Both the position numbers and the translations under genes were made by a program. Positions 3,273 to 22,925 of a stretch of DNA of 60,695 bases are shown here, piece by piece. The stretch is taken from positions 1-60,695 of the forward strand of contig JACVJF010000004.1 in the NCBI GenBank assembly GCA_015711855.1, given 5' to 3'. How positions within the stretch are numbered: the stretch's first letter is position 1; every line of letters begins with the position of its first letter. This DNA comes from Candidatus Solincola quzhuomuensis. Its GTDB lineage: Bacteria; Actinomycetota; Geothermincolia; Geothermincolales; RBG-13-55-18. The notes under the pieces were generated by a model, which saw only the letters and a program-made list of their open reading frames with translations, did not search any database and was not told the origin of the DNA.

Positions 3273-3276
3273 GTCC

Positions 3277-6157: not shown

Positions 6158-6925
6158 ATGGGAGCTTGGGATATTAGGGAATACGAGGTTCTGGATTCCA
6201 CCAACCTGGAGGCCCGTCGCCTACTCCTCGCCGGAGCTGGTGAGGGTCTGGTGGTGACCGCGGGACATCAAACCGCCGGGCGGGGAAGGTTGGATAGATG
6301 CTGGCTGGATCAACCGGGAAAAAGCCTGCTGGTCAGCATCGTTTTCGGCGACAGGGGCCTTTTTCTCGTTTCCGCCCTGGTGGGCTTGGCGGCCAGAGGG
6401 GCCATACGCGCCCTCGGAGGTGAGGGTCCCCTCCTGAAGTGGCCCAACGACCTGGTCTACGGAAGGCGGAAAGTGGGGGGGATCCTCAGCGAGGACTTCT
6501 CGGTAGGAGCTCGACGCTTCGTTATCGTGGGGTTGGGGATAAATCTGGGATATCTCCCCGGTGAGCTGCGGATTTCCGGAAAACTGGCCCCCACTTCCGT
6601 CCTAGTGGAAGAAGGGAGGATTTGGAAAAAGGAAGACGTGTTAAGCGTTTTTCTTCGAGAGGTTGAGGCGCGTTCCGTATTGATGGCGCAGGATCTATGG
6701 GCGGAATACGAAAAATGCTTGGCATACGTGGGGGAGACGGTGGAGGTGGAAGATTACGCTTTGTTTAACCGAAACGACTTTCCGAACCGGACTGGCAAGA
6801 AGCAGAGCGGCGGCGTCATCAAGGGGGTGCTCTTGGGGGTGGACGGGGAAGGCAACATGGTCATCCGGACGGAAAGCGGCCTTCATCGCGTGGCTTCCGG
6901 AGACCTGATCCCGCCGCCGGATTGA
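6158..6925 (+). CDS. birA: Biotin--protein ligase without N-terminal HTH (group I BirA)
   Basis: DSTN, QTAGRGR, KWPND, KVGGIL and GLGIN motifs; no DNA-binding domain. Confidence 0.93.
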   Translation: MGAWDIREYEVLDSTNLEARRLLLAGAGEGLVVTAGHQTAGRGRLDRCWLDQPGKSLLVSIVFGDRGLFLVSALVGLAARGAIRALGGEGPLLKWPNDLVYGRRKVGGILSEDFSVGARRFVIVGLGINLGYLPGELRISGKLAPTSVLVEEGRIWKKEDVLSVFLREVEARSVLMAQDLWAEYEKCLAYVGETVEVEDYALFNRNDFPNRTGKKQSGGVIKGVLLGVDGEGNMVIRTESGLHRVASGDLIPPPD

Positions 6926-7994: not shown

Positions 7995-8924
7995 TCAGCC
8001 GCCCACGGTGACCGTGAGGCTCCGCGAGGTGAAGATGTCCACGATTCCATACAGCTTTTCTTCAGGATATCCCGCGCCTTCGGGGAAGGGATATTCGAGG
8101 CCGAATATTCGATACTTGGCGCCCGCGTAAGGATGATAGGGGAGGATGTCCACCTCGCATTCCCGGCCGTTGCGGCACAAACCCCGGATGAAGTCGGCGG
8201 TACGGGAGAGGTTTTCCTCCCCGTCGTTGAACCCGGGGATGATGGGGATGCGGAAACGCAGCTCTCGGGCGTATTCCGCCAGCCGCCTGGCGTTCTCCAG
8301 GATGATCTCGTTGGAGGCGCCGCAGTGGGAGCGGTGCGCGGCGGAGTCCATGTGTTTGAGGTCCAACAGAAAGTAATCGGTAACCTCGATCATCCTCTCC
8401 AACGTTTCCCAGGCGGCGAAACCGCAGGTGTCCAAGGCCGTATTGAGTCCGCGCCCCTTGGCCTCCGCCAAAAGGTCGTAGGTGAACTCCGGCTGGGCCA
8501 GAGGCTCACCTCCGGAAACGGTCAGCCCTCCCCCCGAATGCTTATAGAAAGGCTTGTCCTTCTCCACCTCCGCAAGGACCTGGTCCACTGTCATCAGCTT
8601 GCCCCAGACCACGAGGGCCTCTTCCGGGCAGGCTTCGGCGCAGCGGAAACAGTCGATGCACCGTTCCCGGCGTATGCGGGGGAGACGAGGACCCTCCATC
8701 TCGACGGCTCCGGCGGGACATACCTCCAGGCATTTACCGCAACCCGTGCAGTTGTTGCGGTAGGGAAGAACTTCCGGGAATCGCCGGTTGCCCTCGGGAT
8801 TGTGGCACCAACGGCAGTTGAGCAGGCAACCTTTTAGAAACACCGTGGTCCGAATCCCCGGCCCGTCGCAGAGAGAATAGAACTGTATGTCGTTGACGTA
8901 TCCCGCCGTGTCCCTTCTTCCCAT
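7995..8924 (-). CDS. assD: Glycyl-radical enzyme activating enzyme (second copy, AssD-like)
   Basis: DGPGIRTTVFLKGCLLNCRWCHNPE radical SAM motif, two ferredoxin CxxCxxCxxxC insertions, SGGEP. Confidence 0.9.
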   Translation of the reverse strand: MGRRDTAGYVNDIQFYSLCDGPGIRTTVFLKGCLLNCRWCHNPEGNRRFPEVLPYRNNCTGCGKCLEVCPAGAVEMEGPRLPRIRRERCIDCFRCAEACPEEALVVWGKLMTVDQVLAEVEKDKPFYKHSGGGLTVSGGEPLAQPEFTYDLLAEAKGRGLNTALDTCGFAAWETLERMIEVTDYFLLDLKHMDSAAHRSHCGASNEIILENARRLAEYARELRFRIPIIPGFNDGEENLSRTADFIRGLCRNGRECEVDILPYHPYAGAKYRIFGLEYPFPEGAGYPEEKLYGIVDIFTSRSLTVTVGG

Positions 8925-8933
8925 CCTTCACCC

Positions 8934-9872
8934 TTATCCGCCGATAGTGGTGGCCAGACCTTGTTCTTCCAGGATGTCCTGCAAGTCGGCGATCTCGCTA
9001 GCCGCCAGGCTTTCCACGTCACGGTATTCCCATTCCCTTCCCAACCAGCGGTATTTGTCCTGGCACCAGTTGTGGAAGGGAAGGAGGTCTACCTGGATGA
9101 TGGAGGGACCCAGCCCGGCGAGGAAGCGGGCCACCTGCTCCATGTGTTCCGGGGAATCGTTGAAACCCGGGATGACCGGTATGCGCACGATCACGTCTGC
9201 GCCCACCTCCGCCAGGCGCCGGAGGTTGGCCAGGATGGGTGAGTTGTTCACCCCTGTACGCAGTAGATGCTGCTTGCCGCTGAGGCACTTGATGTCGTAG
9301 AGGAATATGTCCGTGTAGGGACGCATGGAATCCAGGATTTCCCATTCGCAAAAACCGCTCGTGTCCAAACAGTTGTGAATGCCCCGTTCCTTGGCCCCGC
9401 GCAGCAGCTCCCGGGTGAATTCGGGGAAGGCGGTCGGTTCTCCCCCCGTCAGGGTCATGCCTCCGCCGGAATTGATGTAGAAGGGCATGTCCCTTTCCAC
9501 CTCGTCGAGGATCTCCTCTACCGTCTTGGGTTCCCCGACGCGCACCAGTGCGCCGTAAAAGCAGGCCTCCACGCACTTCATGCAATGGTCGCAGCGGGTG
9601 AGGTCTATCTTGTAGTAGTGCTCGTCTTCCTCGTCACCGCGCAAGGCTATGGGTGGCTGGATGGCTCCCCGGGCACAGGAGTCGAAACACATCCCGCACT
9701 GCCTGCACAGTGAGGGTTTCCAGTATATCTCCGGATAGAAATGTATGCACTCCGGGTTGTGGCACCAGGCGCAGTTCAGCCTGCATCCCTTGACGAAAAC
9801 CGTGGTGCGGATGCCCGGGCCGTCGTTTATGGAATAGCGCTGGATGTTGGTGATCAAGACCTGTTGAGACAT
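8934..9872 (-). CDS. assD: Glycyl-radical enzyme activating enzyme (first copy, AssD/MasG-like)
   Basis: DGPGIRTTVFVKGCRLNCAWCHNPE, two ferredoxin-like cysteine clusters, TGGEP, LLPFH. ATG at 9872 after GGGAG. Confidence 0.9.
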   Translation of the reverse strand: MSQQVLITNIQRYSINDGPGIRTTVFVKGCRLNCAWCHNPECIHFYPEIYWKPSLCRQCGMCFDSCARGAIQPPIALRGDEEDEHYYKIDLTRCDHCMKCVEACFYGALVRVGEPKTVEEILDEVERDMPFYINSGGGMTLTGGEPTAFPEFTRELLRGAKERGIHNCLDTSGFCEWEILDSMRPYTDIFLYDIKCLSGKQHLLRTGVNNSPILANLRRLAEVGADVIVRIPVIPGFNDSPEHMEQVARFLAGLGPSIIQVDLLPFHNWCQDKYRWLGREWEYRDVESLAASEIADLQDILEEQGLATTIGG

Positions 9873-9948
9873 TAAAGGACTCCCTTTTCCTTCCTTCCTG
9901 CGCCGAGGCCGCCACGATGTGCCGTGCGGATAACCGGTGTCGCGCACG

Positions 9949-10128
9949 TCAGGCGTTCTCTCTCTGCAGTTGCTTCTCGGCCCTCTCCTCCTCCAGCTCG
10001 TTCACCACCACCCAGGCATAGCACTGCGGGCACTCGCGGTACGCGGTCTCCGCATCCAAGGTGGTGTTGTAGAGGTAGCGAAAGTCGGACTTCACTCCCT
10101 CATATCCGCAGTTCTCGCACTTGACCAC
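9949..10128 (-). CDS. masE: MasE/delta-like rubredoxin-type small subunit (paralogue 2), 59 aa
   Basis: Not in the ORF track. GTG start after GGAGGT: MVKCENCGYEGVKSDFRYLYNTTLDAETAYRECPQCYAWVVVNELEEERAEKQLQRENA*. The CxxCG...FRYxYN...RxCPxC...V.EL pattern resembles MasE as I recall it. Confidence 0.8.
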   Translation of the reverse strand: MVKCENCGYEGVKSDFRYLYNTTLDAETAYRECPQCYAWVVVNELEEERAEKQLQRENA

Positions 10129-10131
10129 GGC

Positions 10132-10356
10132 TCATACCTCCCTGTTCTTACCGCTGAATTTCCTACCCCATATGTCGCTCAGGCCCCATGGTCTTTCGTC
10201 TTCGCTTTCTCCGTCTCTCTGCTCCAGTTCGTCCACGGGAAACGGGTTGAGGCAGATGGGGCACCGACGAATGGTGACGGGTCCCACCTCTGCCTGGGCC
10301 ACGAGTTGGAACTCCCCCAGAGACCCGTAGCGACCGCATCTCGGACAGACGACCAT
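10132..10356 (-). CDS. MasE/delta-like rubredoxin-type small subunit (paralogue 1)
   Basis: MVVCPRCG...EF...RRCPICLNPFPVDELE...PWG; packed between the beta-like gene and paralogue 2. Confidence 0.72.
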   Translation of the reverse strand: MVVCPRCGRYGSLGEFQLVAQAEVGPVTIRRCPICLNPFPVDELEQRDGESEDERPWGLSDIWGRKFSGKNREV

Positions 10357-10372
10357 GATGCTCGTGAGAAGG

Positions 10373-10672
10373 CTATTTCTCCTCTATCTGCCTCTGCGGA
10401 CGGAATTGAGGATCCCACATGAACTCGCTGGTATCCGTCCGGACCCGGTCGATCTCCTTGTAATGCGGGCAGTCGCTGGCATCGGTGTTGTCGAAGACCG
10501 GCTTGTTCTTCTCCCCGATCTTGATGGCCGTGCACAACCCGTCGCCTGCCGCCGATGCGGAGTTCTGCCGGAAGTTACTGCACATGGCGCAAGCCTTCTC
10601 CGGCATCTCCCGGCGTCCCTTGGAGATGGCTCCCTGGAGCCACTGCTGCCGCAGCTGTTCCCAATCGCTCAT
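10373..10672 (-). CDS. assB: Fumarate-adding enzyme beta-like Fe-S small subunit (AssB/MasB-like)
   Basis: 99 aa with four Cys (CAMC...GDGLC...DCPHY) spaced like FAE small subunits; immediately downstream of the alpha-subunit gene. Confidence 0.75.
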   Translation of the reverse strand: MSDWEQLRQQWLQGAISKGRREMPEKACAMCSNFRQNSASAAGDGLCTAIKIGEKNKPVFDNTDASDCPHYKEIDRVRTDTSEFMWDPQFRPQRQIEEK

Positions 10673-10736
10673 CGCTCTACCCCCTTCTCAAGCGGCCATG
10701 ATCGTGCGAGCCGCGACGATTCCAGGCTGACCCCGT

Positions 10737-13226
10737 TCAAACGCCGAGCTCCTGCACGTTGCGGGCGATGATGGTGTCCTGGGTCTTCTTGTTCAGGTCC
10801 ACGAAGTGGGCACTGTATCCGGCGATACGCACGATGAGCTCGGGGTACTTTTCGGGTTCCCTCTGGGCGGCCTTCAGGGTCTCGTTATCCACCATGTTGA
10901 ACTGCACGTGGTCGATCCCCAGCTCGGCCCAGGTCTTGATGTAGGAGTGCCAGATGTGGAAACCCTTTTCGCCGGCCAACTGCTGCGGGGACAGCCTTTG
11001 GTTGAGCAGGGTCGCCCGCACGTCTCCTATGTGGTCGATCTTGGCCACCGAGCGCAGGACGGCCGTGGGCCCTTTCTTGTCCAGGCCCGCTCCGGGAGAG
11101 CAGCCGCCGTCGTACAGGGTATCGCCCAGCCTCCTGCCGTTGGGCAGGGCCCACACCTTGGTGGCGTTGGTCACGTAAGCCGCGATGTTCTCCGGCAGCG
11201 GAGGCCAGGGGTTCCCGGTGGGATCCTTAATCTCCCAGGAGTGCTTGGCCACGTCGCGGTGGCAACGCACGTGTATCTGATCCACGTAGTCGTCGTCGTT
11301 GCCCCACTTGGGAGCGCGCACGAAATCCATGCGCATCTCCTCGTACCCCTCCCAGTTGTTCCTGAGGGCCTCGATGAGCTGGGCCATGGTGTACTTCTTC
11401 TCGTCGAAAACCAACTTCTTTACCGCGGCCAAGCTGTCGCCCGTCTCCATCCAGGCGAAGAAGGTGATCCAGGAATTGCCGCGTTCCGAGGGATGGGAGG
11501 AGTCCACCCCCAGCTCCACGCACCGTTCGTACAGGCCCGAAAGTAGCGGCCTGGGATCCAGGAATTGGGCCATGTAACGGCCTCCGTTGGTCAGCTTGAC
11601 CAGCGTGTCCATCATCCACTTGACCTGGGTGTACCAAGCCTGATAGAGCTCCTCGAAGGTCTCGAACTTGGAGGCGTCACCGGTGTGGGGCCCGAACTGC
11701 ATCTGGAGCACGTTGTCGTAACCGTCGAAGAGTGCGTATTCGATGGCCTTGGCGGCGATGATGGTGGCGTTGGCCATGCGGAAGGGCTGGCACCCCAGCT
11801 TGGTGTCCGGGCAGGGAGACATGCAGGCCTGGTGCACCCAGCGCCGCGCCTCCCGCAGGGGATGCTTGTGCCAGTGCATGGCGTTGGTGATGAGGATGGG
11901 GTCGTTGCGCATGGACGGATACCCCAAGCCCTGGCGAATGCACTCGAACACCTCCCGGAGCGTCTTCATCCTCACGTTCGGATGGTAGCGGAAGGCGAAG
12001 GTGGGGTTGGCCACCCTGACCAAGCGGGCCGCCTCCAAAAGGCAGTCGGTCATGTCGTTGCAGGCGTCGGTGCCGTCCTCGTTGACCCCTCCTATAGTCC
12101 ACACCCAGGTCCCGGTGATTCCCTGCAGGGTATCGCGGGCCAGCATCAGCCAGAACCACCCTACCTCATAGCAGCGGATGAGAAACTCCCCGGTGAGGTC
12201 CAGGGCTTCTTCGTGGGTGAGGACTTTATCCTGGTTGACGTCCTTGTCGTAGAAAGGCCCGTGCCAGTAATCGGGGCGGGCGGGCCAGGCTCCCTCGCAG
12301 GCCTCGTAGCGGCAGGCGATCTGGATGAAGTGGTCGAACTGGAGGGACTCGTGAAGGTGCTCCGGGGGCTTGGCAGGAACCTTCCAGCAGACCTCGGCGA
12401 TGCGCAGGAGCTCTTCCTTGCGCTTGGGATCGGTCTCGAAGTTCTCCGCGATTATCTTGGCCAGGCGGCTGTAACGTCGGGCCCAGCGAATGACCGCCTC
12501 CAGCACCACCTTCATGGACTTCCAGACGTCGAGTTTCTCGTAATAAGGAAGGTCTTCCGGGTCGGGGACCTTGTTGTAGATGCGGTCCTCCGCCTCCTTT
12601 ATGCGCTCGTCGATCTCGGCGATTATTCCCTCCAGACCCAGTCGGAACATGTAATCCCACTGCTTGGTGGCGTATCCTATGCGGGAGATGGGAAGACCCC
12701 AGCCTATGACCCCGGTGAGGAGCTTCACGATCTCCTCGGGCGGCACCAAGTTGAAGACCTTGGCCCCTGTGGTCTGAGGGTTCCAGTAATCGCAGAGCTC
12801 TCGGATGAGCTTCAGGTTCTCGTCCACCGGTTCAGGTATGACCGTCCGGTCGTTGTAGAGGTCCTCGTTGAGTAGGAAGAGGATCTCCGGGTGCCAGACG
12901 ATGGTGTGGGGCCGGGAGCCCAAGTACCCCATTATCTGGGCATGGTCCTGGATGAATATGGTGATGTTGTCGAAGACGTTGGCAAGGGCCTTGGCGTAGC
13001 GCATGCGCAGTGAGTCGTGTTCGTTCGCCTTAAAGGCCTCGGTGAACAGGACCGCTCGCTCAAGGTCGACCTTTACCCCAGGCTGATAGCCCGATCCCTT
13101 GGCTCCCTTCTTCCATACCGCCTTGCGCAGGTAATCCAGCCTTTTGGACCTCTTGTGTTCCGCCCACCACCACCATTGTCCGCTCTTTTCGATCTCCTCG
13201 ATGGTTCTCGTTTCCACCGCAGCCAT
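10737..13226 (-). CDS. assA: Alkylsuccinate synthase alpha subunit (AssA/MasD), glycyl-radical fumarate-adding enzyme
   Basis: About 829 aa PFL-family protein. Cys loop HQACMSPCP is followed by PFRMA (position of the fumarate-binding Arg). Gly loop is VRIAGYSAHF. N-terminal WWW.AE..RSKRLDYLRK.VWKKG is AssA/MasD-like rather than BssA-like. Confidence 0.92.
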   Translation of the reverse strand: MAAVETRTIEEIEKSGQWWWWAEHKRSKRLDYLRKAVWKKGAKGSGYQPGVKVDLERAVLFTEAFKANEHDSLRMRYAKALANVFDNITIFIQDHAQIMGYLGSRPHTIVWHPEILFLLNEDLYNDRTVIPEPVDENLKLIRELCDYWNPQTTGAKVFNLVPPEEIVKLLTGVIGWGLPISRIGYATKQWDYMFRLGLEGIIAEIDERIKEAEDRIYNKVPDPEDLPYYEKLDVWKSMKVVLEAVIRWARRYSRLAKIIAENFETDPKRKEELLRIAEVCWKVPAKPPEHLHESLQFDHFIQIACRYEACEGAWPARPDYWHGPFYDKDVNQDKVLTHEEALDLTGEFLIRCYEVGWFWLMLARDTLQGITGTWVWTIGGVNEDGTDACNDMTDCLLEAARLVRVANPTFAFRYHPNVRMKTLREVFECIRQGLGYPSMRNDPILITNAMHWHKHPLREARRWVHQACMSPCPDTKLGCQPFRMANATIIAAKAIEYALFDGYDNVLQMQFGPHTGDASKFETFEELYQAWYTQVKWMMDTLVKLTNGGRYMAQFLDPRPLLSGLYERCVELGVDSSHPSERGNSWITFFAWMETGDSLAAVKKLVFDEKKYTMAQLIEALRNNWEGYEEMRMDFVRAPKWGNDDDYVDQIHVRCHRDVAKHSWEIKDPTGNPWPPLPENIAAYVTNATKVWALPNGRRLGDTLYDGGCSPGAGLDKKGPTAVLRSVAKIDHIGDVRATLLNQRLSPQQLAGEKGFHIWHSYIKTWAELGIDHVQFNMVDNETLKAAQREPEKYPELIVRIAGYSAHFVDLNKKTQDTIIARNVQELGV

Positions 13227-13607
13227 TTTCAACCCCCTTATCTCTCGTCTTTCTTACGGGAATCGTCAGCTGGCTTTGCCGGCACGAAAAGGCTCCGTGA
13301 TCGTTTCCCCCAAAGCCGCTTACCGCCATCCCCCCTCTCCTCTCCGTCGGTCCCGCGTGACCTCTCCAAGTAAAGCGTCGAAGAAAAGCCCTTTGGACAA
13401 CTCTCCGTTGCTGCGTTGCGGCGATGCCTTGTGCGGACCTTTTCTCGTGCTGGGGTGCGTCTGCTGCGAAGAAAGGTAGATGCTGTGCAAGAAATTGTTC
13501 GATCGTCGCTTACCTACTCATTCCCTCAAAAAATTCAACTTGTATTTAGTAACCAGTTCTTAATTTTTATTATATTTCCTAATAAACTGGTATGTTAATT
13601 TGCCTTA

Positions 13608-13636
13608 ATTTTAGTAAAAGTGCACTAAATTTTCAA
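13608..13636 (-). promoter_or_regulatory. Putative sigma70-type promoter of the ass operon
   Basis: Minus strand TTGAAA (13636-13631), 17-nt spacer, TAAAAT (13613-13608), inside a strongly AT-rich island. Confidence 0.6.
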
Positions 13637-13860
13637 GGGGTTTTTCAATCTTTTTGGTGAGTTTTTTCCCGGGAGGGACGAGTTGCCACGACCAATTCGC
13701 TGGCAGTGCTCCAAAGCATGAGACTCGGAACCTGGGAGGGGGATTATCGAAAGGCACCTGCTCGCGGGCATGGCGTCGCCTCGTCGCGCCTTATCGGCAG
13801 AATCGCCCTTTTTAGCGAATATGGCCGCTCTTCCGCTCTTTTGCAGGAGGAAGGCCGGCC

Positions 13861-14661
13861 CTAACGCCCCTTGAACACGGGATCCCGCTTCTCTCGAAAA
13901 GCCGCCAAACCCTCCCTGGCGTCCTCGCTGGCCAGAGCTCGTCCCATCACGGCGTTGGCTTCCTCGCGTTCCTCCTCGGTCAGCGCCCGTGGCTGGGAGA
14001 TCATCTTGAGCAGTCGCTTGTGACCGGCCAGGGACAGGGGGGCGTTGGAAGCCAGGCGGTGGGCCAGATTCTCGGTGAAAGCCTCCAGTTCCTCATCGGG
14101 GACGAGATAGTCCAGCATCCCCATCTCGAATGCTTCCCGGGCCTCGAAGAGCTCGGCGGTGAGGAACACCTTCTTCGTGCGGGCCAGCCCCAGATTGCGT
14201 AGGAAGCGGTGTAGACCTTCCGGCGGGTAGACAATGCCCAGGCGAGCCGGGGGCATGCCCATGCGGCAGTTCTCCGACCCCACCCGCAGGTCGCAGGCCA
14301 TGCTGGTCTCGCATCCGGCCCCCACGCAGTAGCCCCTGATCATGGCGATGACCGGGAAGGGGCAGTCCTCGATGGCCTCCAACCCGTACTGCAGGGGACC
14401 CTTGGCCTCTATCTGCTTCTGGACCTCCTCGGGGATGCCCTCGGGCACGGCAGAGAGGTCCATACCGGCGGAAAAAGCCTTATCTCCGGATCCTCGAAGC
14501 ACGGCGCAGCGTACCGTCCCCCTCTCGGCCAAGTCCTGCAGGGCCCGAGCCAGGGAAATGAGTAGGGGGACGGATAGCGCGTTCCTGCGCTTCGGCCGGT
14601 TGATGGTCAGGAAAGCCAGCGGTTCCCTGATGTCCACCAGAAGCTCTTCGGCATCGCTCAT
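13861..14661 (-). CDS. Crotonase-superfamily protein, ScpB/methylmalonyl-CoA decarboxylase-like
   Basis: NRPKRRNAL, FSAGMDL, GAGCE and EG..AFREKR.P.F motifs. The second catalytic Glu position reads PPARLGIVY. Confidence 0.85.
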   Translation of the reverse strand: MSDAEELLVDIREPLAFLTINRPKRRNALSVPLLISLARALQDLAERGTVRCAVLRGSGDKAFSAGMDLSAVPEGIPEEVQKQIEAKGPLQYGLEAIEDCPFPVIAMIRGYCVGAGCETSMACDLRVGSENCRMGMPPARLGIVYPPEGLHRFLRNLGLARTKKVFLTAELFEAREAFEMGMLDYLVPDEELEAFTENLAHRLASNAPLSLAGHKRLLKMISQPRALTEEEREEANAVMGRALASEDAREGLAAFREKRDPVFKGR

Positions 14662-15098
14662 GGCCGCACCTCCCGTCTTTATTCTCTTATCTGTCTTTTT
14701 GCCGTCGGTTCACCCCTCTTGTCCCCGGGAAAAGATACGGAAGCAAACTGTACCTAAAAAGCACTCAGGCGACCGTCCAGGCCATTTAAAAATATTAACA
14801 CCAAGATCCCTCGCCCGCTTTGTGGTTCGCCCCTCGCTCCTTCCCCGCCCGGCCTTTCCCTCCGCGGCACCCGCCGAGGAGGGAAATCGTTTTTTCCTTT
14901 CGGGCACTTCCCTTGAGTGGCCGATAGCTCCTATGGCGGTCGAAAGGGAGCGCCTTTCACGCCCCTCTTTTACCGCTTCCGAGCGGGGGTCACGAGGACG
15001 TCGCGCTCGCTTTGCGATTCACGAGGGCATAACGGAGGGGAAGGCTCGGTGGTTCCCCGTCCGCATGCCCCCCTCGGGCGGCTGCCGGGGACGATCCC

Positions 15099-16646
15099 TC
15101 AGGAAGAGGCCCCGCCGTAGAGCTTGCGCAGTTCCTTCTTCAGGATCTTGCCGGTGAGGGTGCGGGGGATGGCCTCCACGAAGGTTATCTTCTTGGGTAT
15201 CTTGTAGCGGGCGAGCTTCCCCTCGCAGAAGGCCTCCATCTCCTCCATGGTGAGGGGGTCATCCGGGTTCTCCAGAAGGATCAGGGCGTGACCCACCTCA
15301 CCCCATTTCTCGTCCGGCATGCCGATGACCGCCACGTCCTTGACCTTGGGGTGCTCCATGAGCACCTTCTCCACCTCGGCGGGATAGATGTTCTCTCCGC
15401 CGGAGATGATCATGTCCTTCTTGCGGTCCACGACGTAGATGTACCCGTCCTCGTCCACGGTGGCCAGATCCCCGTAGTGGAACCATCCATCTTTCATCGC
15501 CTCCGCGGTCTCCTCGGGCATGTTCCAATAGCCCAACATCACGTAAGGGCCGCGGGAGCATATCTCCCCCACCTCGCCGGACCCCGGCCTCACCTCCGTG
15601 CCGTCCTCCTTGAGCACCTTCACCTCGGCGTGGAACATGGGGATGCCCGCGCTGCCGATCTTTTCCATGTTGGAACAGGAAAGCACGATGGAAGTCTCCG
15701 TGCACCCGAAGACCTGGATGAGGAGGGGCACCTTCATCTTCTCCACGATGCGGTCCAGTAGCTCCCGGGAGGCGGGAGCACCCCCTATCCCCACCCCCTT
15801 GAGGGAGGAAAGGTCGTACTGGGAGAAGCTGGGGACGTCCAGCATCATCTGGAGCATGGTGGGCACGGCGCCGAAGTGGGTGACCCGGTGGCGGTCGATG
15901 ATCTGTAGGGCCTCCTCCGGGTTCCAGAATCTCTGGAATATTATGGTACCTCCGATGTAGAAGGTGGGCATGGTGATGATGTTCAGGCCCCCGGAGTGAA
16001 AGAGGGGTATGGAGACCAGGGAGACGGCGTTGATGTCGAAAAGCAGCTCCAGGGTGTCGTTGAAGGTGTTCCAGAAGGTCTTGCGGTGGGGGAGCACAGC
16101 CCCTTTGGCCCGGCCGGTGGTCCCGGAGGTGTACATGATCATCTGGGGGTCCTCCATGTCTGGCGGTTCGGGTACCGCGGGTTCCTCTTCCCCGAAACCG
16201 GCCAACCACTCCTCGTAGGGGCGGCTGAAGTCGGGGACCGGGTCCCCCGCCGTGGCCAAGATCTCTATGGGTTCGCGGTAGAGCTCCCTCAGCTGACCAA
16301 CCGTGCCCGCAAACTCCGGGTGGAAGAAGAAGGCCCGGGGGTTGGTGTCCTTGAAGACGTACTCCAGTTCTTGGGGTGTGAGGCGGAAGTTGAGGGGGAT
16401 GAAGATGAACCCCGTCTTCGCACAGGCGAAGTACACCTCCATGAACTCGATGCTGTTGAAGAAGAGGGCGGCCACCCGGTCTCCTTTCTTCAGGCCCGCC
16501 TGGAGGAGCCCGTTGGCCACCTGGTTTACGCGTCCGTTGAACTCCGTATAGGTGAGAGCGCGATCCCCGGCTATGAAGGCCGTCTTGTCCTTGGTGAGAG
16601 GAAAGACAGCCCTCTTTAAAGCCCAGTTGCCCACGTTCACGATCAT
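15099..16646 (-). CDS. Acyl-CoA synthetase (AMP-forming; AssK-like candidate)
   Basis: YTSGTTGRAKG, FGCTET, GDL, DRKKDMIISGGENIYPAEVE and GKILK adenylation motifs. Confidence 0.92.
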   Translation of the reverse strand: MIVNVGNWALKRAVFPLTKDKTAFIAGDRALTYTEFNGRVNQVANGLLQAGLKKGDRVAALFFNSIEFMEVYFACAKTGFIFIPLNFRLTPQELEYVFKDTNPRAFFFHPEFAGTVGQLRELYREPIEILATAGDPVPDFSRPYEEWLAGFGEEEPAVPEPPDMEDPQMIMYTSGTTGRAKGAVLPHRKTFWNTFNDTLELLFDINAVSLVSIPLFHSGGLNIITMPTFYIGGTIIFQRFWNPEEALQIIDRHRVTHFGAVPTMLQMMLDVPSFSQYDLSSLKGVGIGGAPASRELLDRIVEKMKVPLLIQVFGCTETSIVLSCSNMEKIGSAGIPMFHAEVKVLKEDGTEVRPGSGEVGEICSRGPYVMLGYWNMPEETAEAMKDGWFHYGDLATVDEDGYIYVVDRKKDMIISGGENIYPAEVEKVLMEHPKVKDVAVIGMPDEKWGEVGHALILLENPDDPLTMEEMEAFCEGKLARYKIPKKITFVEAIPRTLTGKILKKELRKLYGGASS

Positions 16647-16831
16647 CACCCCCGTCAATCCCTGCTTCTCCGGACCCTGGCGAAGGCTTTCATGGCGGGC
16701 AGGCCGGAAAGAGGACCTAATATTGGGAGCTTCATGTCTCGCCTCTTTCTTCCCCGGACCGCACTTCCGCGGTAGGGAGGACGCGAATCCGAGGATCCGG
16801 TTTTGCCCAGCTCCGACAGCCCACGGGCAAA

Positions 16832-16926
16832 ATTATGGTATAAGGTTCACCTGATGTAAAGTATTAAAGTTCATAATCACTAAAATAGTTATTATGGAAA
16901 ATTGTCCCATAATATCGTATTTATGG
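16832..16926. promoter_or_regulatory. Divergent promoter region with alternating ATTATGG/CCATAAT boxes
   Basis: Boxes at 16832, 16872, 16891, 16907 and 16920. Minus-strand TTTACA (16860-16855)-N17-CATAAT (16837-16832) fits a promoter for the ligase. Confidence 0.55.
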
Positions 16927-17177
16927 CTTAAATAATATAAAATTCTACCTAATGAATATTTCTTTACACCGCCTTTTTTCTCTGATAACATACCCTGCAA
17001 AAGGGGTGGATGCGAGGCATCGGCAGCATTGCGGTTCTCACGCTACGATCGAGATAAAAACGGAGAATGCCGGGGGCGAACCGCCTTCCCCGTCGTCCGC
17101 TCCTTTCGGCGTTGAATGTCAAGCGGAACACGCACTGTTGCAGGAGGATCCGTAACGCGTATCGAGGGGGGATGGGT

Positions 17178-18539
17178 ATGAACGAGTTGGCGGAGGTGGG
17201 AAAGTTCGTCTGCGGGCTGAGGTACGAGGACGTTCCGGGCGAGGTGATGGAAGCGGCGAAGCTTCCCGTCATCGACTGCCTCGGGGTGACGGTGGCCGGC
17301 CTTGAAGACGAGGGATCGCGCATCGTGGCCGAATGGGTGGATTCCGTAGGCGGCAGGGAGGAGGCTACCGTTTTCTACGGGTTCAGGAGGAGCGCTGCGC
17401 CTCTGGCGGCTCTGGCCAACGGCACCGCCGCTCATGCCCTGGATTACGACGACGTGAGTTTCCGCATGATGGGACATCCTTCCGTGGCCCTGGTTCCGGC
17501 CGTCGTGGCCCTAGGGGAGGTGCTGGGCTCGTCAGGGAAGGATTTCCTGCTGGCCTACGTGGCCGGGCTGGAGGTGGCCGCAAAGGTGGGAGCGGCCCTG
17601 GGCGGCAACTCCTACATGCTCGGATGGCACCATACCAGCACCTTGGGAGTCCTGGGCGCCGCCGCTTCAAGCGGGAAGTTGCTGGGGCTGGACGAGGAGA
17701 AGATGACCCACGCTCTGGGCATCTCCTGCTCCATGGCCATGGGCATCCGGGCCAACTTCGGGACCATGACCAAACCTCTTCACGCAGGAGCCGCGGCCAT
17801 GAACGGGGTCATCGCCGCTCAGCTCGCCGACCGTGGGTTTACCGCCAATCCCGACGCCCTCTACGGCGAGAACGGTTTCGCGCGTGCCTTCACCTCAGAC
17901 CTGGAAAAGGCGGAGGAACTGCTTAAAAGCCTAGGAGAGCCCTACGAGCTCACGGATCCCGGCCTCTCCTTCAAGCCTTATCCCTGCTGCCGGGGACCGC
18001 AGGGGGCCATCGACGCAGCTTTGGCGGCCAGGGAGGAGTGGAAGAAAAAGGGGAAGATCGATCCCTCGGATGTGGAGAGAGTGGAATGCCGGGTGCCCTC
18101 CTGGTTGAGGTCGGTACTCGTATATCACGAGCCGAAGACCGGCACGGAAGGGAAATTCAGCCTGGAGTTCTGCGTGGCCGCCGCCCTCCTGGAAGGCAAG
18201 GTGGGCGTGGGCCAGTTCAGGGACGAGGTGGTGACCTCGGAGCCGGTGGCGGAGCTCATACGCCGCTTTGACTGGCAGGACCTGGAAGGGGAGATCACCA
18301 GTCCCTTCGCCTCCGAGGTGGTGGTCCATCTGAAGTCGGGGGATAAGGCGACGGGCAAAGCGGAGAGACCCCTGGGCGAGCCGGGCAATCCCATGAGCCA
18401 GGAGCAAATTCACGACAAGTATCGGGAATGCGTGGGGAGCATCCTGGGCTACGCGGTCGCCGACTCCACCTTGGAGATGCTGCGGAACCTGGAGAGGCTG
18501 GACGACGTGAACAGCCTGGTACGCGCCTACCGGGGATGA
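17178..18539 (+). CDS. MmgE/PrpD family protein (iminodisuccinate-epimerase-like)
   Basis: ANGTAAHALDYDD, GHPS, Y..GWH, KPLHAG, KPYPCC and GEPGNPMS motifs. Confidence 0.92.
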   Translation: MNELAEVGKFVCGLRYEDVPGEVMEAAKLPVIDCLGVTVAGLEDEGSRIVAEWVDSVGGREEATVFYGFRRSAAPLAALANGTAAHALDYDDVSFRMMGHPSVALVPAVVALGEVLGSSGKDFLLAYVAGLEVAAKVGAALGGNSYMLGWHHTSTLGVLGAAASSGKLLGLDEEKMTHALGISCSMAMGIRANFGTMTKPLHAGAAAMNGVIAAQLADRGFTANPDALYGENGFARAFTSDLEKAEELLKSLGEPYELTDPGLSFKPYPCCRGPQGAIDAALAAREEWKKKGKIDPSDVERVECRVPSWLRSVLVYHEPKTGTEGKFSLEFCVAAALLEGKVGVGQFRDEVVTSEPVAELIRRFDWQDLEGEITSPFASEVVVHLKSGDKATGKAERPLGEPGNPMSQEQIHDKYRECVGSILGYAVADSTLEMLRNLERLDDVNSLVRAYRG

Positions 18540-18587
18540 GACGCGGCCCTTCCCCCCCGCCTTTAGCGGAGCGGCCGCGGGGCGAAC

Positions 18588-19004
18588 CTAAGAAGACGTC
18601 CCCAAACGGGTGCGTATGAAATCCGCCACCTGCGAGATGTAGGTCCCGGAGACGAAGACCTCGGCCACCCCCATCTCCTTGAGCTTGGGGATGTCCTCGG
18701 CCGGGATGATCCCGCCCACGAGGACCATCTTGTCCTCCACGCCCTTTTCCCGGAGGAGGGACATGATCCGACGCACTATGCTCAGATGGGCTCCGGAGAG
18801 GATGGATAGACCGATCACGTCCACGTCCTCGTCCACGGCGGCGTTGACGATCTCCTCCGGGGTGCGCCTCAAGCCGGTGTAGATCACCTCGAATCCCTCG
18901 TCCTTCAGGCCGTAGGCGATGACCTTGGCCCCTTGGTCGTGCCCGTCCAGGCCCGGTTTGGCTATGAGCACCCGGATAACCTTTCCACCCGTTTTGGCTT
19001 CCAT
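18588..19004 (-). CDS. Acyl-CoA mutase cobalamin-binding small subunit
   Basis: [12 protein letters not shown] (DxHxxG), SILSGAH and GGIIP motifs. Confidence 0.95.
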
Positions 19005-19018
19005 GATTTACCTCCCCG

Positions 19019-21043
19019 TCAATCCATCACCGTCTCGCACCTCAGGAGCTCCACCTTAAGGCCCGTTTCCCTGGCGATATCGAGGTATGCCCGACCGGTT
19101 AGGTCCCTTCCCCAGCGGCTGAGATGGAAGGGGGAGGAGGGAATGATCACCAGGTCGGGCTTCTCGCCGTGTTTTTCCATCCATTCTTGGAGGTGGTCTA
19201 TGTAGTCCTTCACCACCAGCAGGTCTCCGAGCATTATGTTTCCCCCGAAGAAGCGATTCTCCGGAACGCTCAGTCGCAGTTCCGAGCCCTCCGGGAGGTT
19301 GATCGGGTTTTCCTCCAGCAGCTGTTCCAGGGTGGGGCGGACAAGACGCGAGGTGAGGAGAAGGACCAGGCGTGCCTCCGATCGGCGCACCATGCCCTCC
19401 AGGACCCGGAGGTAGGAGACTCGCAGACCGCTCCCCATGAAGGCCACCCCCAAGTGGGTTCCGGTGTGAAAGTCGAAAGGATAAGAGTACCGGCGAGTCT
19501 CTCCGCCTAGCTCCACCGCTTTGCCATCCCTTCTCACCAGGAGAGAGACCTTTTCCTCCCCGCTATTCTGAAGCAGGGTTAGCAAGTCGCGGGCCTGGGG
19601 ACGGTTGAGCACGTTGATCCCGTTAATCCGAAGGATGACGTCTCCCGGTCTGAGTCCCCAGGATTTTGCCGGAGAGTTGGGTACCAGCCCGATCACCTCC
19701 GGAAGGTTCTTTCGCTCCCGGGTGAGGTTCTCCTCGTAAAGCGCGGGGCTCAACACCAGAGGGCAGGGAAGGTCGCTGCGCATTTCCCCTACCAGCCGTA
19801 CCACGGCGCCCCATACCTCCTCGGTGTCGAAGAGCGGTGTCGAGGAGAAGAACCTAGAGTAACCGGGAAGGTTGACCTGAACCAGCCGCGCCCCGCAGCC
19901 CGCGGCGTAGGCGCAGGTCCTCTCCAAGTCCCGCAGCATCTCCTCCAAGGAGGGTTCCGGCCAGGCCACCACGGTGACGGCGAAGGGAATGGCCGCATCC
20001 GCCAGCCTGGGGAGAGAGTGGATGGCCGTCTCGGGTCTCCGGTCCCCCATGAGGAAGGAGCGCCGGGCGGGGTCGGAGCTGTTGAGGGAGACGTCCAGAA
20101 AGAGAGGGGCTAGGCCTGCCAGCTCCTCGACGAAAGCCTTATCCAGGCGGCAGCCGTTGGTGGCCAGACGGAAGGGCGCGTCGGTCCTCTCCCGCAGGCG
20201 GCGGAGCAGAGGTATGATGCGCGGATGGGCCAGCGCCTCACGGGGTCCGCCGAAGGTGGGGAAAAGACCTCGCCGCGCCAGAGGGCGGTAGTGGGCGATC
20301 CTGGCTTCCAGTCTCTTCCAGTCGCTTACCGGGTCGGCTGGCGGCTGCATGAGGGAGGGGAGGGATCCTCGGTGATAACAGAACCGGCATCGACAATCGC
20401 ACCGGTCGGCGGCATGGAGTATCACGTCCTCCGCGCTGTCCACCGGGGCGTCCGTCCAGTCGGAAAGGCGGCGCAGCCGGAACCCGTCCACCTCCACCGG
20501 CTGGCCCTCGCGCTCCAGCTGCACCAGCGAGAGCAGGCTCTCCAGCTGGCGGGCCAGGAAGTCCAGGCGGGGCTCGTAGAGGGCCGCGTTGGCCCGACTC
20601 AGGAAAGGCGGGACCGGATACCCCCGGGAGTTGGCCCTTTTCGACGGGCCGGCTATGCAGGAGCGCTCCTGGGGAGGACTTATAATTCTCGGTCGTGCTT
20701 GGCGATTTTCGTCCGCCTCGTAGGATTCGGTTACCGAATCGTTTTTCGAAGTGGGATATATGTCGTGCACCGCCCCGTCCGGGCCCAGAAAGCGGAAGCC
20801 GTCCACCTCCACCTCCCTACCTCCCTCCAGGAGGCGTATCACGGACAAGAGGTTGCGGAGTTGCTCGCGTATCAGCTGCACGTGAGGATCCGGTCCCCGC
20901 GACCCGCCTCCGGCTTGTCGCAAGGGATAGCGGAAAAGAGCCCCTTCGACCTCCTCCGCCCCCGTTGTCGCAGCGGGGGCGGTATTTCGGGCCGCCGACT
21001 CGCGCTCCGCCGAGAGCCGCTGACGTTCCATCCTCGTCACCAC
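19019..21043 (-). CDS. Radical SAM protein with PDZ-like and C-terminal DUF512-like domains
   Basis: CDCRCRFC motif; PDZ-like SPA...GLRPGDVILRING; DUF512-like ENRFFGGNIMLGDLL...D. Start position uncertain. Confidence 0.75.
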   Translation of the reverse strand: MVTRMERQRLSAERESAARNTAPAATTGAEEVEGALFRYPLRQAGGGSRGPDPHVQLIREQLRNLLSVIRLLEGGREVEVDGFRFLGPDGAVHDIYPTSKNDSVTESYEADENRQARPRIISPPQERSCIAGPSKRANSRGYPVPPFLSRANAALYEPRLDFLARQLESLLSLVQLEREGQPVEVDGFRLRRLSDWTDAPVDSAEDVILHAADRCDCRCRFCYHRGSLPSLMQPPADPVSDWKRLEARIAHYRPLARRGLFPTFGGPREALAHPRIIPLLRRLRERTDAPFRLATNGCRLDKAFVEELAGLAPLFLDVSLNSSDPARRSFLMGDRRPETAIHSLPRLADAAIPFAVTVVAWPEPSLEEMLRDLERTCAYAAGCGARLVQVNLPGYSRFFSSTPLFDTEEVWGAVVRLVGEMRSDLPCPLVLSPALYEENLTRERKNLPEVIGLVPNSPAKSWGLRPGDVILRINGINVLNRPQARDLLTLLQNSGEEKVSLLVRRDGKAVELGGETRRYSYPFDFHTGTHLGVAFMGSGLRVSYLRVLEGMVRRSEARLVLLLTSRLVRPTLEQLLEENPINLPEGSELRLSVPENRFFGGNIMLGDLLVVKDYIDHLQEWMEKHGEKPDLVIIPSSPFHLSRWGRDLTGRAYLDIARETGLKVELLRCETVMD

Positions 21044-21161
21044 CTCACTTCAGCCGGTGCGCCGTTCGGGTGGGCTCGCGCTCTGCGCAACCCGGTTTTT
21101 CACGGCCGGCGATAACCGTATGCCAGGGGACGGAAGGGATTCCCTTCACCGTCCCCCAGGG

Positions 21162-22925
21162 TCAGAAGGGGGACACGGCCTGGTATTCCCCGAAGACCTC
21201 CCGCAGCACGTCGCATATCTCCCCCTCGGTCACGTAGGCCTTCACGCACTGGATGAGGTGAGGGAGCAGGTTCTCCTCCTCCTTCCGGGCCAAGTCTTCC
21301 AGCTCCTTCAGGAGGCGAGCCACCTCCCGGCCGTCGCGGTTCCTCTTGATCTCCGCCAGGCGGGCCTTCTGCCTCTCCTCCGCGCGCTCCCTCCTCTCTG
21401 GGTCGTAGGGGTTGGGGACCAGGCGGTTGGTGGTCACCTCCAGCTCGTGCTCGCCGGTGAAGCAGTTGACCCCCACCACCAGGCGTTCGCCCCGCTCTAT
21501 GGCTCGCTGCCGCTCATAGGCGCTGCGGGATATCTCCCTCTGCATGTACCCGTTTTCTATGGCCGCCACCGCTCCGCCCATCTTCTCGATCTTCTCCAGT
21601 TCCTCCCAGGCGGCGTTCTCGATCTCGTCGGTGAGGGACTCCATGCAGTAGGAACCGGCGAATGGATCGGTGTACTCCAGGAGGCGCGCCTCGCAGGCGA
21701 TGATTCTCCCCGCGTCCTGGGCCAGCTGCAGGGCTTCCATGCTCCACCCCAACCCCAGGGGCTCGTCGTAGGGCGGGAAGGGGAGGGGCCGTCCTCCGGA
21801 GAGGGCGCTGGCCACCGCCCCGATGACCGCCCGGGTGAGGTTGTTCAGCGGCCGTTGCAAGGTGGTGGAGGAGGGCCCGATGTGAGCCCCGATGGCCTGG
21901 CGGATGCGCATGCTCCGCTCGTCCCGGGCCCCGAAGCGCTCCTTGAGTATCCGGGCGTACATGCGGCGGGCCGCCCGCTGGAAAGCGATTTCCTTGAGCA
22001 TCTCCATGGAGCCCCCGAAGGCGTTGAAGGTGAAGCGGGGGGCGAACTCGTCCACCTCGAGTCCGGCTTCCACCCCCACCTTGAGATATTCCACGGCGAT
22101 GGCCATGGAGAAGGCCAGGTCCTGCTCCCGGGTGGCTCCGGCCTCCCTTATGTGGTAGCCGCCTATGCTGGTGATGTTCACGTTGGGCATGTGCCTGGTT
22201 ATGAAGACCAGGCTGTCCCGGAAGAGGCGCAGGGCGTGTCTCGGCGGGAAAATGTAGGTGCCGCGGGCGATGTATTCCTTGAGGATGTCGTTCTGGGGGG
22301 TGGCCCGCAACTTATCCAGGGGGATGCCCCGCTTCTCGGCCAGGGCGGCGTACATGGCGATGATCACGTTGGCCGGGGCGTTGATGGTGAAGTTGGAGGC
22401 GATGCGGTCGAGGTTTAAATCCCCCTGATAAGGCTCGTAGATGATCTCGAAGTCGGCCAGGGTGTCCACGCACACCCCCACCTTGCCCACCTCCCCCTCG
22501 GCCAGGGGATGGTCGGAGTCGTAGCCGCACTGGGTGGGGAGGTCGAAGGCCAGGTTGGGGCCCCCTCGGCTCCCTTGCTCGAGAAGACCCTTGTAGTAAT
22601 CGCGGGTGTCCTCCGGGGTGCCGTATCCGGAATAGATGGCGGCGCGGGTCTGCCCTCCGGCTCCGGGGATCTCCCCCTTTCCCCCCGCCAGAGAGGCCAG
22701 TCGAGCCAGCCCGGCCATGGGTTCTATGGGAAAGGTACCGGCGGTGAAGGGATAGGTGCCCGGGAAGCCCACCTTCTCCAGGAAGTCGAAGGGCTCGATG
22801 TCCAGAGGGGTGAAGAAGCGGCTGCTCTCCTTGTTCAGGTAGGGAAACTTCTGAATGGCTTTGGCCAAGGGCCCTTCCTCCCAGGCGCGCCGCGCCTCGC
22901 TTATCTTTTCCAGATACTCGTTCAT
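21162..22925 (-). CDS. Acyl-CoA mutase large subunit, divergent methylmalonyl-CoA mutase family
   Basis: PGTYPFT.G, AFDLPTQCGYDSD, GEVGKVGV, QNDILKEYIARGTYIFPP, GYHIREAG, DPFAGSY and VVGVN motifs. ATG at 22925 after AAGGGG. Confidence 0.93.
   Translation of the reverse strand: MNEYLEKISEARRAWEEGPLAKAIQKFPYLNKESSRFFTPLDIEPFDFLEKVGFPGTYPFTAGTFPIEPMAGLARLASLAGGKGEIPGAGGQTRAAIYSGYGTPEDTRDYYKGLLEQGSRGGPNLAFDLPTQCGYDSDHPLAEGEVGKVGVCVDTLADFEIIYEPYQGDLNLDRIASNFTINAPANVIIAMYAALAEKRGIPLDKLRATPQNDILKEYIARGTYIFPPRHALRLFRDSLVFITRHMPNVNITSIGGYHIREAGATREQDLAFSMAIAVEYLKVGVEAGLEVDEFAPRFTFNAFGGSMEMLKEIAFQRAARRMYARILKERFGARDERSMRIRQAIGAHIGPSSTTLQRPLNNLTRAVIGAVASALSGGRPLPFPPYDEPLGLGWSMEALQLAQDAGRIIACEARLLEYTDPFAGSYCMESLTDEIENAAWEELEKIEKMGGAVAAIENGYMQREISRSAYERQRAIERGERLVVGVNCFTGEHELEVTTNRLVPNPYDPERRERAEERQKARLAEIKRNRDGREVARLLKELEDLARKEEENLLPHLIQCVKAYVTEGEICDVLREVFGEYQAVSPF

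Follow-up and report, generated by a model that had tools for sequence, protein, structure and literature searches.

Which substrate does the predicted mutase encoded beside an alkylsuccinate synthase in Candidatus Solincola quzhuomuensis act upon? The gene lies at positions 21162..22925 on the minus strand of a stretch of 60,695 nucleotides (contig JACVJF010000004.1), which we call the window in its full length. An initial annotation had proposed that its product is a mutase dedicated to (1-methylalkyl)succinyl-CoA. Here we find that the protein represents a specificity variant among the acyl-CoA mutases that is as yet uncharacterised and for which a pathway role was previously proposed from gene context. 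Judged by its sequence, it belongs to a tight and unnamed subfamily that is distinct from methylmalonyl-CoA mutase (MCM). It probably serves the alkylsuccinate route of this organism as a substituted-succinyl-CoA mutase, a reading that we hold with moderate confidence.

The open reading frame (ORF) extends from an ATG at 22925 to a stop at 21162 and encodes the 587 amino acids (aa) of a mutase large subunit (mutase L). An in-frame GTG at 23048 could potentially add 41 aa; the starts of close homologues correspond to the MNEYLEKI of mutase L rather than to this longer start. The protein matches the MM_CoA_mutase TIM-barrel family (PF01642) with 462.7 bits (cut-off 22.1) and TIGR00641 with 486 bits (cut-off 303.8). 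With the MCM equivalog model NF006944 it scores 396.8 bits and stays below the cut-off of 876; this model describes a fusion protein of about 720 aa and therefore puts a split subunit at a disadvantage. The score with the IcmF model NF045497 is 176.6 bits, where the cut-off is 1500. Among structures in the PDB, the best sequence match is HcmA (4r3u, the large subunit of 2-hydroxyisobutyryl-CoA mutase, HCM) with 356 bits, followed by human MCM (309 bits), Propionibacterium shermanii MCM (272 bits) and IcmF (142 bits). An AlphaFold2 model that was built from 144 sequences reached a predicted local distance difference test score (pLDDT) of 92 and a predicted template modelling (TM) score of 0.92; it supersedes an earlier model from 14 sequences (pLDDT 68), which was poor precisely at the divergent strands. 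The model superposes on HcmA 4r3u with a TM score of 0.85–0.89 (36% identity) and on MCM with a TM score of 0.80–0.83. The cofactor-binding partner is encoded nearby at 18588..19004 (minus strand). This small subunit (mutase S, 138 aa) matches PF02310 with 84.9 bits and TIGR00640 with 169.8 bits (cut-off 57.45), and its DGHDQG conforms to the DxHxxG motif. By its fold and by its partnership with this cofactor subunit, the product of 21162–22925 is predicted to be the substrate-binding subunit of an adenosylcobalamin-dependent acyl-CoA mutase.

In MCM, a Tyr/Arg pair holds the carboxylate of the substrate, whereas isobutyryl-CoA mutase (ICM) and IcmF have Phe and Gln at these two positions. We aligned mutase L at the residue level to HcmA 4r3u, human MCM, the ScpA proteins of Escherichia coli and Sinorhizobium meliloti, and three paralogues from the same genome. 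The Tyr (Y98) is retained in TRAAIYSGYG, which pairs with the canonical (T)IRQYAGF, and TPQNDILKEYIARGTYIFPP retains the Gln and the Arg (R221) next to an intact QNDILKEY; in the MCM of E. coli, S. meliloti and human, Y98 is matched by the Tyr and R221 by the Arg. The GGYH motif is retained as well. Three strands of the barrel differ: FTFNAFGG stands where canonical mutases have LSFF(W/F)G, RQAIGAHIGPSS stands in place of R.H.QTSG (AIGAHIGPSS versus H.QTSG, with two extra residues, the His possibly kept and the Gln gone), and PLPFPPYDEP replaces SLHTNSxDEA with its Asp-Glu retained. Thus, none of the three strands that characterise canonical MCM, i.e. LSFF(W/F)G, H.QTSG and SLHTNSxDE, is found in mutase L. 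The ICM signature of Phe and Gln is likewise absent from mutase L and occurs in the same-genome paralogue L080. The alignments therefore bear out every motif that the initial annotation had named as kept (the Tyr, QNDILKEY and GYH) or as replaced (the three barrel strands).

In terms of known systems, mutase L shares the Tyr/Arg pair, QNDILKE, GYH and the Asp-Glu with MCM (P. shermanii 1req and 4req, human 2xij and E. coli ScpA). It differs from MCM in its identity of 30–32%, the three replaced strands, an additional loop ahead of the Tyr motif and a B12 subunit that is not fused to it. HcmAB (4r3u) resembles the window mutase in its split large and small subunits and is the best match in both sequence and fold; nevertheless, HcmA has Ile and Gln in place of Tyr98 and Arg221 and keeps the canonical H.QT.. 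and SLHTN.YDE strands. A carboxylate pair that is kept while the rest of the barrel is changed fits a succinyl-CoA with an added carbon branch. A Gly-rich insertion before the first motif, which had also been pointed out, is indeed present as about 15 extra residues relative to HcmA. Its length and sequence vary among relatives, and it is the only long low-confidence stretch of the structural model, with a mean pLDDT of 48 for residues 81–90. Because of this variation in length and the low model confidence, we regard the insertion as a variable loop and not as a motif.

To place mutase L among its relatives, we compared it to sequence libraries and inferred a phylogeny. Close homologues (66–93% identity) occur in Actinomycetota, Deltaproteobacteria/Thermodesulfobacteriota, Bacillota, Chloroflexota and other groups, with the nearest one in Candidatus Solincola tengchongensis, and all of them are annotated just as 'methylmalonyl-CoA mutase (family protein)'. 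In a library clustered at 50% identity, the subfamily is covered by one full-length representative with 926 bits; the next entries score 516 and 502 bits and the rest at most 400. Among plasmid records, the best match to mutase L has 40.6% identity, and no relative was found above this value. In a FastTree phylogeny of 217 mutase sequences, the 86 members of the subfamily form a single clade within a wider radiation of uncharacterised Tyr/Arg mutases with very variable pocket strands. This clade is far from the canonical MCM clade; the named references in the tree are the ScpA proteins of E. coli and S. meliloti only, and other clades were labelled by their motifs. The motif frame F[TS]FN[AG]FGG / ..AH[IM]G.. 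/ ..(F/Y)PPY recurs across the 86 leaves, and the rebuilt motifs are not due to chance. At 29 positions of the 217-sequence alignment, a residue conserved to at least 85% in the subfamily stands against a different residue that is conserved in 37 canonical LHTN-type mutases. Many of these positions sit on barrel strands, and the changes from canonical to subfamily include Ser to Asn at 124 and 178, Ile to Pro at 210, Ser to Gly at 255, Phe to Asn at 301 and Asn to Pro at 384. Other residues (Q211, N212, D213, H258, D387 and E388) are conserved in the subfamily and in canonical mutases alike. The proposal of a separate subfamily is thus supported by the retained Tyr/Arg pair together with the altered strands, and by both clustering and phylogeny.

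Two peculiarities were observed among the related loci and sequences. Loci L042, L057, L066, L067, L072 and L079 contain tandem pairs of mutase L genes, where one copy often has an altered signature, e.g. Tyr-Arg-Ala-His; these pairs may be heteromeric or sub-functionalised enzymes. In addition, two members carry the names of archaeal metagenome-assembled genomes (P0094 and L069; Candidatus Methanosuratincola and Candidatus Methanolliviera hydrocarbonicum), which reflects either gene transfer or mis-binning.

The genomic neighbourhood links mutase L to fumarate addition. On the same strand and 7.9 kb away, 10737..13232 encodes the catalytic subunit of a (1-methylalkyl)succinate synthase of the MasD/AssA type, which has PFL-like and Gly_radical domains and matches MasD (9o8u_A) with 1118.3 bits versus 569 bits for benzylsuccinate synthase. 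This gene is followed by three small ORFs, all on the minus strand: a Cys-rich MasB-like subunit of 99 aa (10373..10672; 9o8u_B, E 4e-10), a MasE-like subunit of 74 aa with a weak match (10132..10356; 9o8u_D, E 0.025), and a third Cys-rich ORF of 59 aa (9949..10128). Relatives of the latter were found with tblastn at 41–82% identity in L015, L017, L018, L021 and L027; they adjoin MasD in the first four loci, and in L027 there is no MasD match within the examined stretch. Two glycyl-radical activating enzymes are encoded in tandem (8934–9947 and 7995–8924, minus strand; TIGR02494 with 339 and 334 bits, cut-off 174), so that a single MasD gene is accompanied by two different activase genes. An AMP-forming, AssK-like acyl-CoA ligase is encoded at 15099..16658 on the minus strand (AMP-binding 295.5 bits) and passes the long-chain-fatty-acid--CoA ligase model NF004837 with 510.6 bits (cut-off 476). 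The gene order downstream of mutase L is a radical SAM/PDZ protein, mutase S, an MmgE/PrpD-family protein on the opposite strand, the ligase, a crotonase, MasD, the small ORFs and the activases. The mutase, ligase, crotonase, MasD, MasB/MasE-like and two activase genes share the same strand within the interval 7995–22925. The alkylsuccinate synthase (ass) context that had been assumed for this gene is therefore real.

If the mutase belongs to this pathway, its route can be drawn as follows. The (1-methylalkyl)succinate produced by MasD would be converted to its CoA ester by the neighbouring ligase. Mutase L and the B12 subunit would then move the thioester group and turn (1-methylalkyl)succinyl-CoA into (2-methylalkyl)malonyl-CoA, with the altered barrel strands making room for the alkyl branch. 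The decarboxylase-like crotonase would convert (2-methylalkyl)malonyl-CoA to 4-methylacyl-CoA, which would enter beta-oxidation. In this scheme, the substrate and the reaction direction are inferred, as are the function of the crotonase and the room that the strands make for the branch. The chemically nearest known reaction is that of ethylmalonyl-CoA mutase, in which an alkyl-substituted succinyl-CoA is converted to an alkylmalonyl-CoA. A pathway in which (1-methylalkyl)succinyl-CoA is rearranged to (2-methylalkyl)malonyl-CoA and then decarboxylated is described in passages of the published literature (PMC7701123).

We examined the co-occurrence of the mutase with MasD in 301 Desulfobacteria and 301 Dehalococcoidia genomes, most of which are incomplete metagenome-assembled genomes, and scored the best three to four first-look candidates per genome. 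Our own thresholds were at least 48% identity for MasD-type genes and at least 50% for the subfamily in Desulfobacteria, and at least 43% for MasD-type genes in Dehalococcoidia. Among the Desulfobacteria, 24 genomes have a MasD-type gene and 25 have the subfamily mutase; 21 have both, three only MasD, four only the mutase and 273 neither (Fisher's exact test, p = 2e-25, shared ancestry ignored). The two genes are on the same contig and within 18 kb in 13 of the 21 genomes with both. Among the Dehalococcoidia, five genomes have both genes, none has only MasD, 18 have only the mutase and 278 have neither (p = 2e-6, shared ancestry ignored); the 23 carriers include one partial match, and the two genes were never on one contig in the five genomes with both. 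Taken over both classes, 26 of 29 MasD-type genomes carry the subfamily, and in the reverse direction MasD is present in 26 of 48 subfamily genomes. The association of the subfamily with MasD is thus strong but one-sided, and the mutase is not exclusive to genomes with assA.

Several observations weigh against a mutase that is specific to the alkylsuccinate route. The subfamily occurs without a MasD-type gene in 22 of the 48 genomes. We also checked ten carrier genomes as a whole: a MasD orthologue was found in two (66% and 95% identity), and in the other eight there was no MasD match above 38% identity. One of these eight, G001, is a complete chromosome of 2.2 Mb that carries the mutase; nothing in it matched MasD at E ≤ 0.001. 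In the phylogeny, MasD-linked members are distributed over at least four separate clades (the Desulfobacterales-type clade, Actinomycetota, Bacillota and L027), and two of the MasD-linked clades have GntR- or TRAP-linked sister groups with support values of 95 and 98. Furthermore, MasD-linked and GntR/TRAP-linked members have the same or similar pocket strands and cannot be told apart by them. Lastly, loci that combine a TRAP transporter, a CoA-transferase, the mutase and a crotonase similar to methylmalonyl-CoA decarboxylase (MMCD) resemble the scpA-argK-scpB-scpC operon of E. coli, which converts succinate to propionate. The initial annotation had named a distribution independent of assA as grounds against its proposal, and such independence is partly seen: MasD-type genomes nearly always carry the mutase, but four of 25 carriers in Desulfobacteria and 18 of 23 in Dehalococcoidia are without MasD. 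Overall, the initial interpretation is supported in part: the MasD island and the co-occurrence speak for it, the MasD-less carriers and the pocket strands shared between contexts speak against it, and 'long branched' succinyl-CoAs are putative substrates.

Glycyl radical enzymes that are 34–38% identical to MasD were observed in four MasD-less mutase carriers (L086–L089, from G006, G003, G010 and G002, respectively). Their Cys loop reads 'GCMRW' or 'NCMVP' and is without the Glu that is seen two residues after the Cys in two other hits of this comparison, L090 and L092. These enzymes may add fumarate to something; both could be located in a single genome, and there the enzyme is not near the mutase gene.

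A rival reading is that the protein is an ordinary MCM with a divergent sequence, which would regenerate fumarate from propionyl-CoA or, together with the crotonase, convert succinate to propionate. The retained Tyr/Arg pair is compatible with this function, and mutase L is the only mutase of its genome with this pair. The genome encodes three further mutase paralogues, each with a small subunit directly downstream and none with the pair. The paralogue at L081:1390-3078 (contig C91) has Ile at the Tyr position and Gln for the His of GYH, and the one at L082:1405-3087 (contig C2) has Phe and Asn at these positions and adjoins an ORF similar to acyl-CoA dehydrogenase. Recycling of propionate to fumarate via the methylmalonyl-CoA pathway has been published, as passages of PMC7701123 describe, and the transporter-linked cassettes with DctP/DctQM, a family III CoA-transferase and an MMCD-like crotonase parallel the E. 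coli operon. In the window's genome, which is 96% complete, we found neither a PF01039 carboxyltransferase nor a methylmalonyl-CoA epimerase above the cut-off. The partners that usually supply or use methylmalonyl-CoA in an ordinary MCM route are therefore missing here; the absence of PF01039 would also mean that there is no AccD-type subunit of acetyl-CoA carboxylase. The low score with NF006944, albeit with a model of the fused form, speaks against a plain MCM, as do the 29 positions at which the subfamily departs from the canonical residue and of which many belong to barrel strands. Moreover, the subfamily is present in none of nine Desulfobacteria genomes that hold only BssA-like enzymes (37–40% identity), although toluene degraders regenerate fumarate as well, and the MmgE/PrpD partner, which is similar to iminodisuccinate (IDS) epimerase, would have no role in such a route. 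We consider it quite improbable that mutase L is a plain MCM.

The gene neighbourhoods of the subfamily show in which company the mutase travels. In a scan of species-representative genomes, we took the best 80 of 164 relatives (79 loci), clustered the neighbouring genes and checked the labels with Pfam. Mutase S is present in 53 of the 79 loci, the crotonase in 44, the radical SAM/PDZ gene in 42 and the MmgE/PrpD gene, a core member of the cassette, in 41. A family III CoA-transferase was found in 31 loci, the ligase in 20, MeaB in 15 and a carboxyltransferase in 14; transporter and regulator genes are less frequent (DctP and DctQM in 12 each, GntR in 10). MasD is present in seven of the 79 loci according to clustering, and according to tblastn (at least 56% identity) it lies within 10 kb of the mutase in nine. 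The mutase has two main contexts among the 79 loci, one linked to MasD and one linked to GntR and TRAP transporters. The best explanation is that the subfamily is the core of a portable cassette that consists of mutase L and S, the crotonase and the IDS-epimerase-like protein. The cassette variably includes the radical SAM/PDZ protein, MeaB and the family III CoA-transferase, and it occurs in combination with MasD or else with GntR and a TRAP transporter. Subfamily members that lack MasD probably handle imported substituted succinates.

These contexts could also point to a mutase for short or polar substituted succinyl-CoAs, e.g. one that interconverts methylsuccinyl-CoA and ethylmalonyl-CoA or that acts on compounds derived from imported di- or tricarboxylates. 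The link to MasD would then be secondary and due to promiscuity or to short alkanes. The MasD-less carriers that form the majority in Dehalococcoidia (18 of 23) would be accounted for in this way, as would the GntR and TRAP transporter genes beside the mutase in many loci and an MmgE/PrpD partner that is nearest to enzymes of small polycarboxylates (IDS epimerase, IRG1 and cis-aconitate decarboxylase). Some genomes contain three to five copies of the mutase, which suggests a range of substrates. Contrary to this idea, MasD-linked clades and their GntR-linked sisters have identical or nearly identical pocket strands, the window's ligase scores above the cut-off of a long-chain-fatty-acid--CoA ligase model, and the subfamily is carried by all but three of the 29 MasD-type genomes. 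We regard a short or polar substrate as unlikely, and substituted-succinyl-CoA mutase activity in the alkylsuccinate route remains the reading that we prefer.

We next turn to the companions. It is conceivable, though rather doubtful, that a mobile 'substituted-succinate' cassette is built around the mutase and includes three so far unrecognised, dedicated helpers. As part of this joint reading, the radical SAM/PDZ protein would bind cobalamin and mature, repair or modify the mutase, the IDS-epimerase-like MmgE/PrpD protein would be the missing epimerase for alkylsuccinate diastereomers, and the ScpB-like crotonase, rather than a carboxyltransferase, would carry out the decarboxylation.

The radical SAM/PDZ protein is encoded between the two mutase subunits (19019..21043, minus strand). 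Its ORF starts from a GTG at 21043, and the conserved region begins near an FRYPL motif. The protein matches Radical_SAM with 41.8 bits and PDZ_6 with 45.4 bits; the DUF512 match of 20 bits is below the cut-off of 25, and 15 of 20 relatives have a DUF512 match at E ≤ 0.01. Cys215, Cys219 and Cys222 are invariant in the 20 relatives. The 42 loci with this gene belong to several phyla, and the position between mutase L and mutase S recurs in many of them. The DUF512 group of cobalamin-binding radical SAM proteins (csDUF512, pfDUF512 and Mmp10) resembles the window protein, which combines a radical SAM core, a PDZ domain and a DUF512-like C-terminal part, the last being sub-threshold. The domain order differs, with radical SAM-PDZ-DUF512 in the window protein and PDZ-radical SAM-DUF512 in csDUF512. 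DUF512 proteins are described as radical SAM enzymes that bind cobalamin and whose substrates are unknown (PMC11659888, where the word 'mutase' is absent).

A role of this protein as a general partner of the subfamily was rejected: among the 301 Desulfobacteria, the gene is present in only three of 25 subfamily carriers, each time adjoining the mutase, and in none of the 276 other genomes. We also rejected that it replaces MeaB, as 11 of the 79 loci contain it together with MeaB; the window itself has no MeaB, and the single copy of the genome is on another contig. The C-terminal tail of mutase L has a conserved pattern, [S/T/A]-x-hydrophobic, and we considered it as a putative ligand of the PDZ domain. 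However, loci that lack the radical SAM gene show the same degree of conservation in this tail, and a hydrophobic C-terminus is also seen in one paralogue. An uncontrolled complex prediction for mutase L and residues 430–674 of the radical SAM protein (PDZ and DUF512-like parts) scored 0.00 and speaks neither for nor against contact. Handling of the cofactor or modification of the mutase are candidate roles for this protein.

The MmgE/PrpD-family protein (17067..18539, plus strand) has both the MmgE_PrpD_N and the MmgE_PrpD_C domain and is closest to IDS epimerase. It scores 228 bits with IDS epimerase 2hp0, 217 bits with IRG1 of Bacillus subtilis, 163 bits with cis-aconitate decarboxylase and 22.7 bits with 2-methylcitrate dehydratase. 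Going by these similarities, the protein is possibly an alkylsuccinate epimerase. One genome paper assigned the epimerisation step to alpha-methylacyl-CoA racemase, according to passages of PMC6776118, and a substituted-succinate epimerase would fit the step described there.

The crotonase-fold protein (13861..14661, minus strand; ECH_1 170 bits) is a candidate substituted-malonyl-CoA decarboxylase. It is 34% identical to E. coli ScpB, a methylmalonyl-CoA decarboxylase, and matches PDB 1ef8 with 133 bits. At the position where the aligned crotonase 3kqf has Thr-Glu, it has Pro-Ala and ScpB has Pro-Val, so that the Glu is absent from both. The window and the E. coli scp operon share the logic of a mutase that is followed by a decarboxylase.

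Further genes around the island may contribute to the same metabolism. A two-subunit pyruvate carboxylase (biotin carboxylase and a PycB/OadA-like subunit; 1932–5121, minus strand) and a biotin ligase (6140–6925, plus strand) adjoin the alkane island, and the former may be an alternative feed for the regeneration of fumarate. A run of FAD-binding, CCG-domain and electron-transfer flavoprotein (ETF) alpha/beta genes occupies 50223–59460 (minus strand), and a tungsten-type aldehyde:ferredoxin oxidoreductase is encoded at 46171–48300. Together, these may provide electron-transfer equipment for beta-oxidation. The listing of sequencing runs contained no RNA run with the window's genome, and its shares in DNA runs were at most 0.12. 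Alkane-activating thermophilic actinobacteria have been reported, as a passage of PMC8878594 states.

Mutases of ass islands have been noted before. Under the names 'mcmLS' or 'hcmAB' they are located, as here, beside alkylsuccinate synthase with MmgE/PrpD, enoyl-CoA hydratase and ligase genes (passages of PMC13685792, PMC6776118 and PMC10766756). In these passages the mutases were assigned by gene context; the window cassette additionally holds the radical SAM/PDZ gene. The 'putative mcmLS' is listed among post-activation genes in PMC6776118 and PMC10766756, and PMC13685792 presents the ass-island mutase as a candidate for the carbon-skeleton rearrangement and as 'a different mutase' from MCM. 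The candidate role of the mutase as the 'mcmLS/hcmAB' of ass islands is thus already in print (PMC13685792), and the name 'hcmAB' reflects similarity and not specificity. According to other passages, skeleton rearrangement and decarboxylation are steps whose enzymes 'are not conclusively described' (PMC6163223), and the genes for the steps after fumarate addition 'remain unclear' (PMC8163825).

Within the main-text passages searched, we found no residue-level or biochemical description of ass-island mutases. A radical SAM gene linked to the mutase was not found in the passages of the ass-island papers, where the term occurs only in the reference list of PMC8163825. Searches by residue names returned nothing useful. 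The same holds for names of the 'alkylsuccinyl-CoA' type, a weak negative since bracketed names and names with leading digits escape matching at word starts. Nor did the same literature yield the residue signature, the report of a tightly separated subfamily that often occurs next to TRAP transporters and without MasD, its radical SAM/PDZ companion or the affinity of the MmgE/PrpD partner to IDS epimerase. The decarboxylase-like crotonase, the radical SAM/PDZ protein and the IDS-epimerase-like protein are newly noted conserved companions.

The steps that follow fumarate addition in anaerobic alkane oxidation have so far been assigned by guesswork. The signature described here (RAAxYSGYG, FTFNAFGG, AH[IM]G and PFPPYDEPLGLGW) picks out the mutase that travels with MasD and separates it from MCM, ICM and HCM. 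It would thus improve the annotation of alkane degraders and name a concrete set of proteins. The finding would gain in interest should the companions turn out to be dedicated helpers, or should carriers without MasD live on alkylsuccinates. If the radical SAM/PDZ protein matures, repairs or modifies the mutase, PDZ-type DUF512 enzymes would thereby gain their first physiological context. If the cassette reading is true, its joining to TRAP transporters in MasD-less Dehalococcoidia and others would imply cross-feeding of alkylsuccinates, or of similar compounds, in anoxic habitats. The spread of the cassette and its companions thus offer leads on how B12-dependent mutases are serviced in strict anaerobes and on whether alkylsuccinates are shared between organisms.

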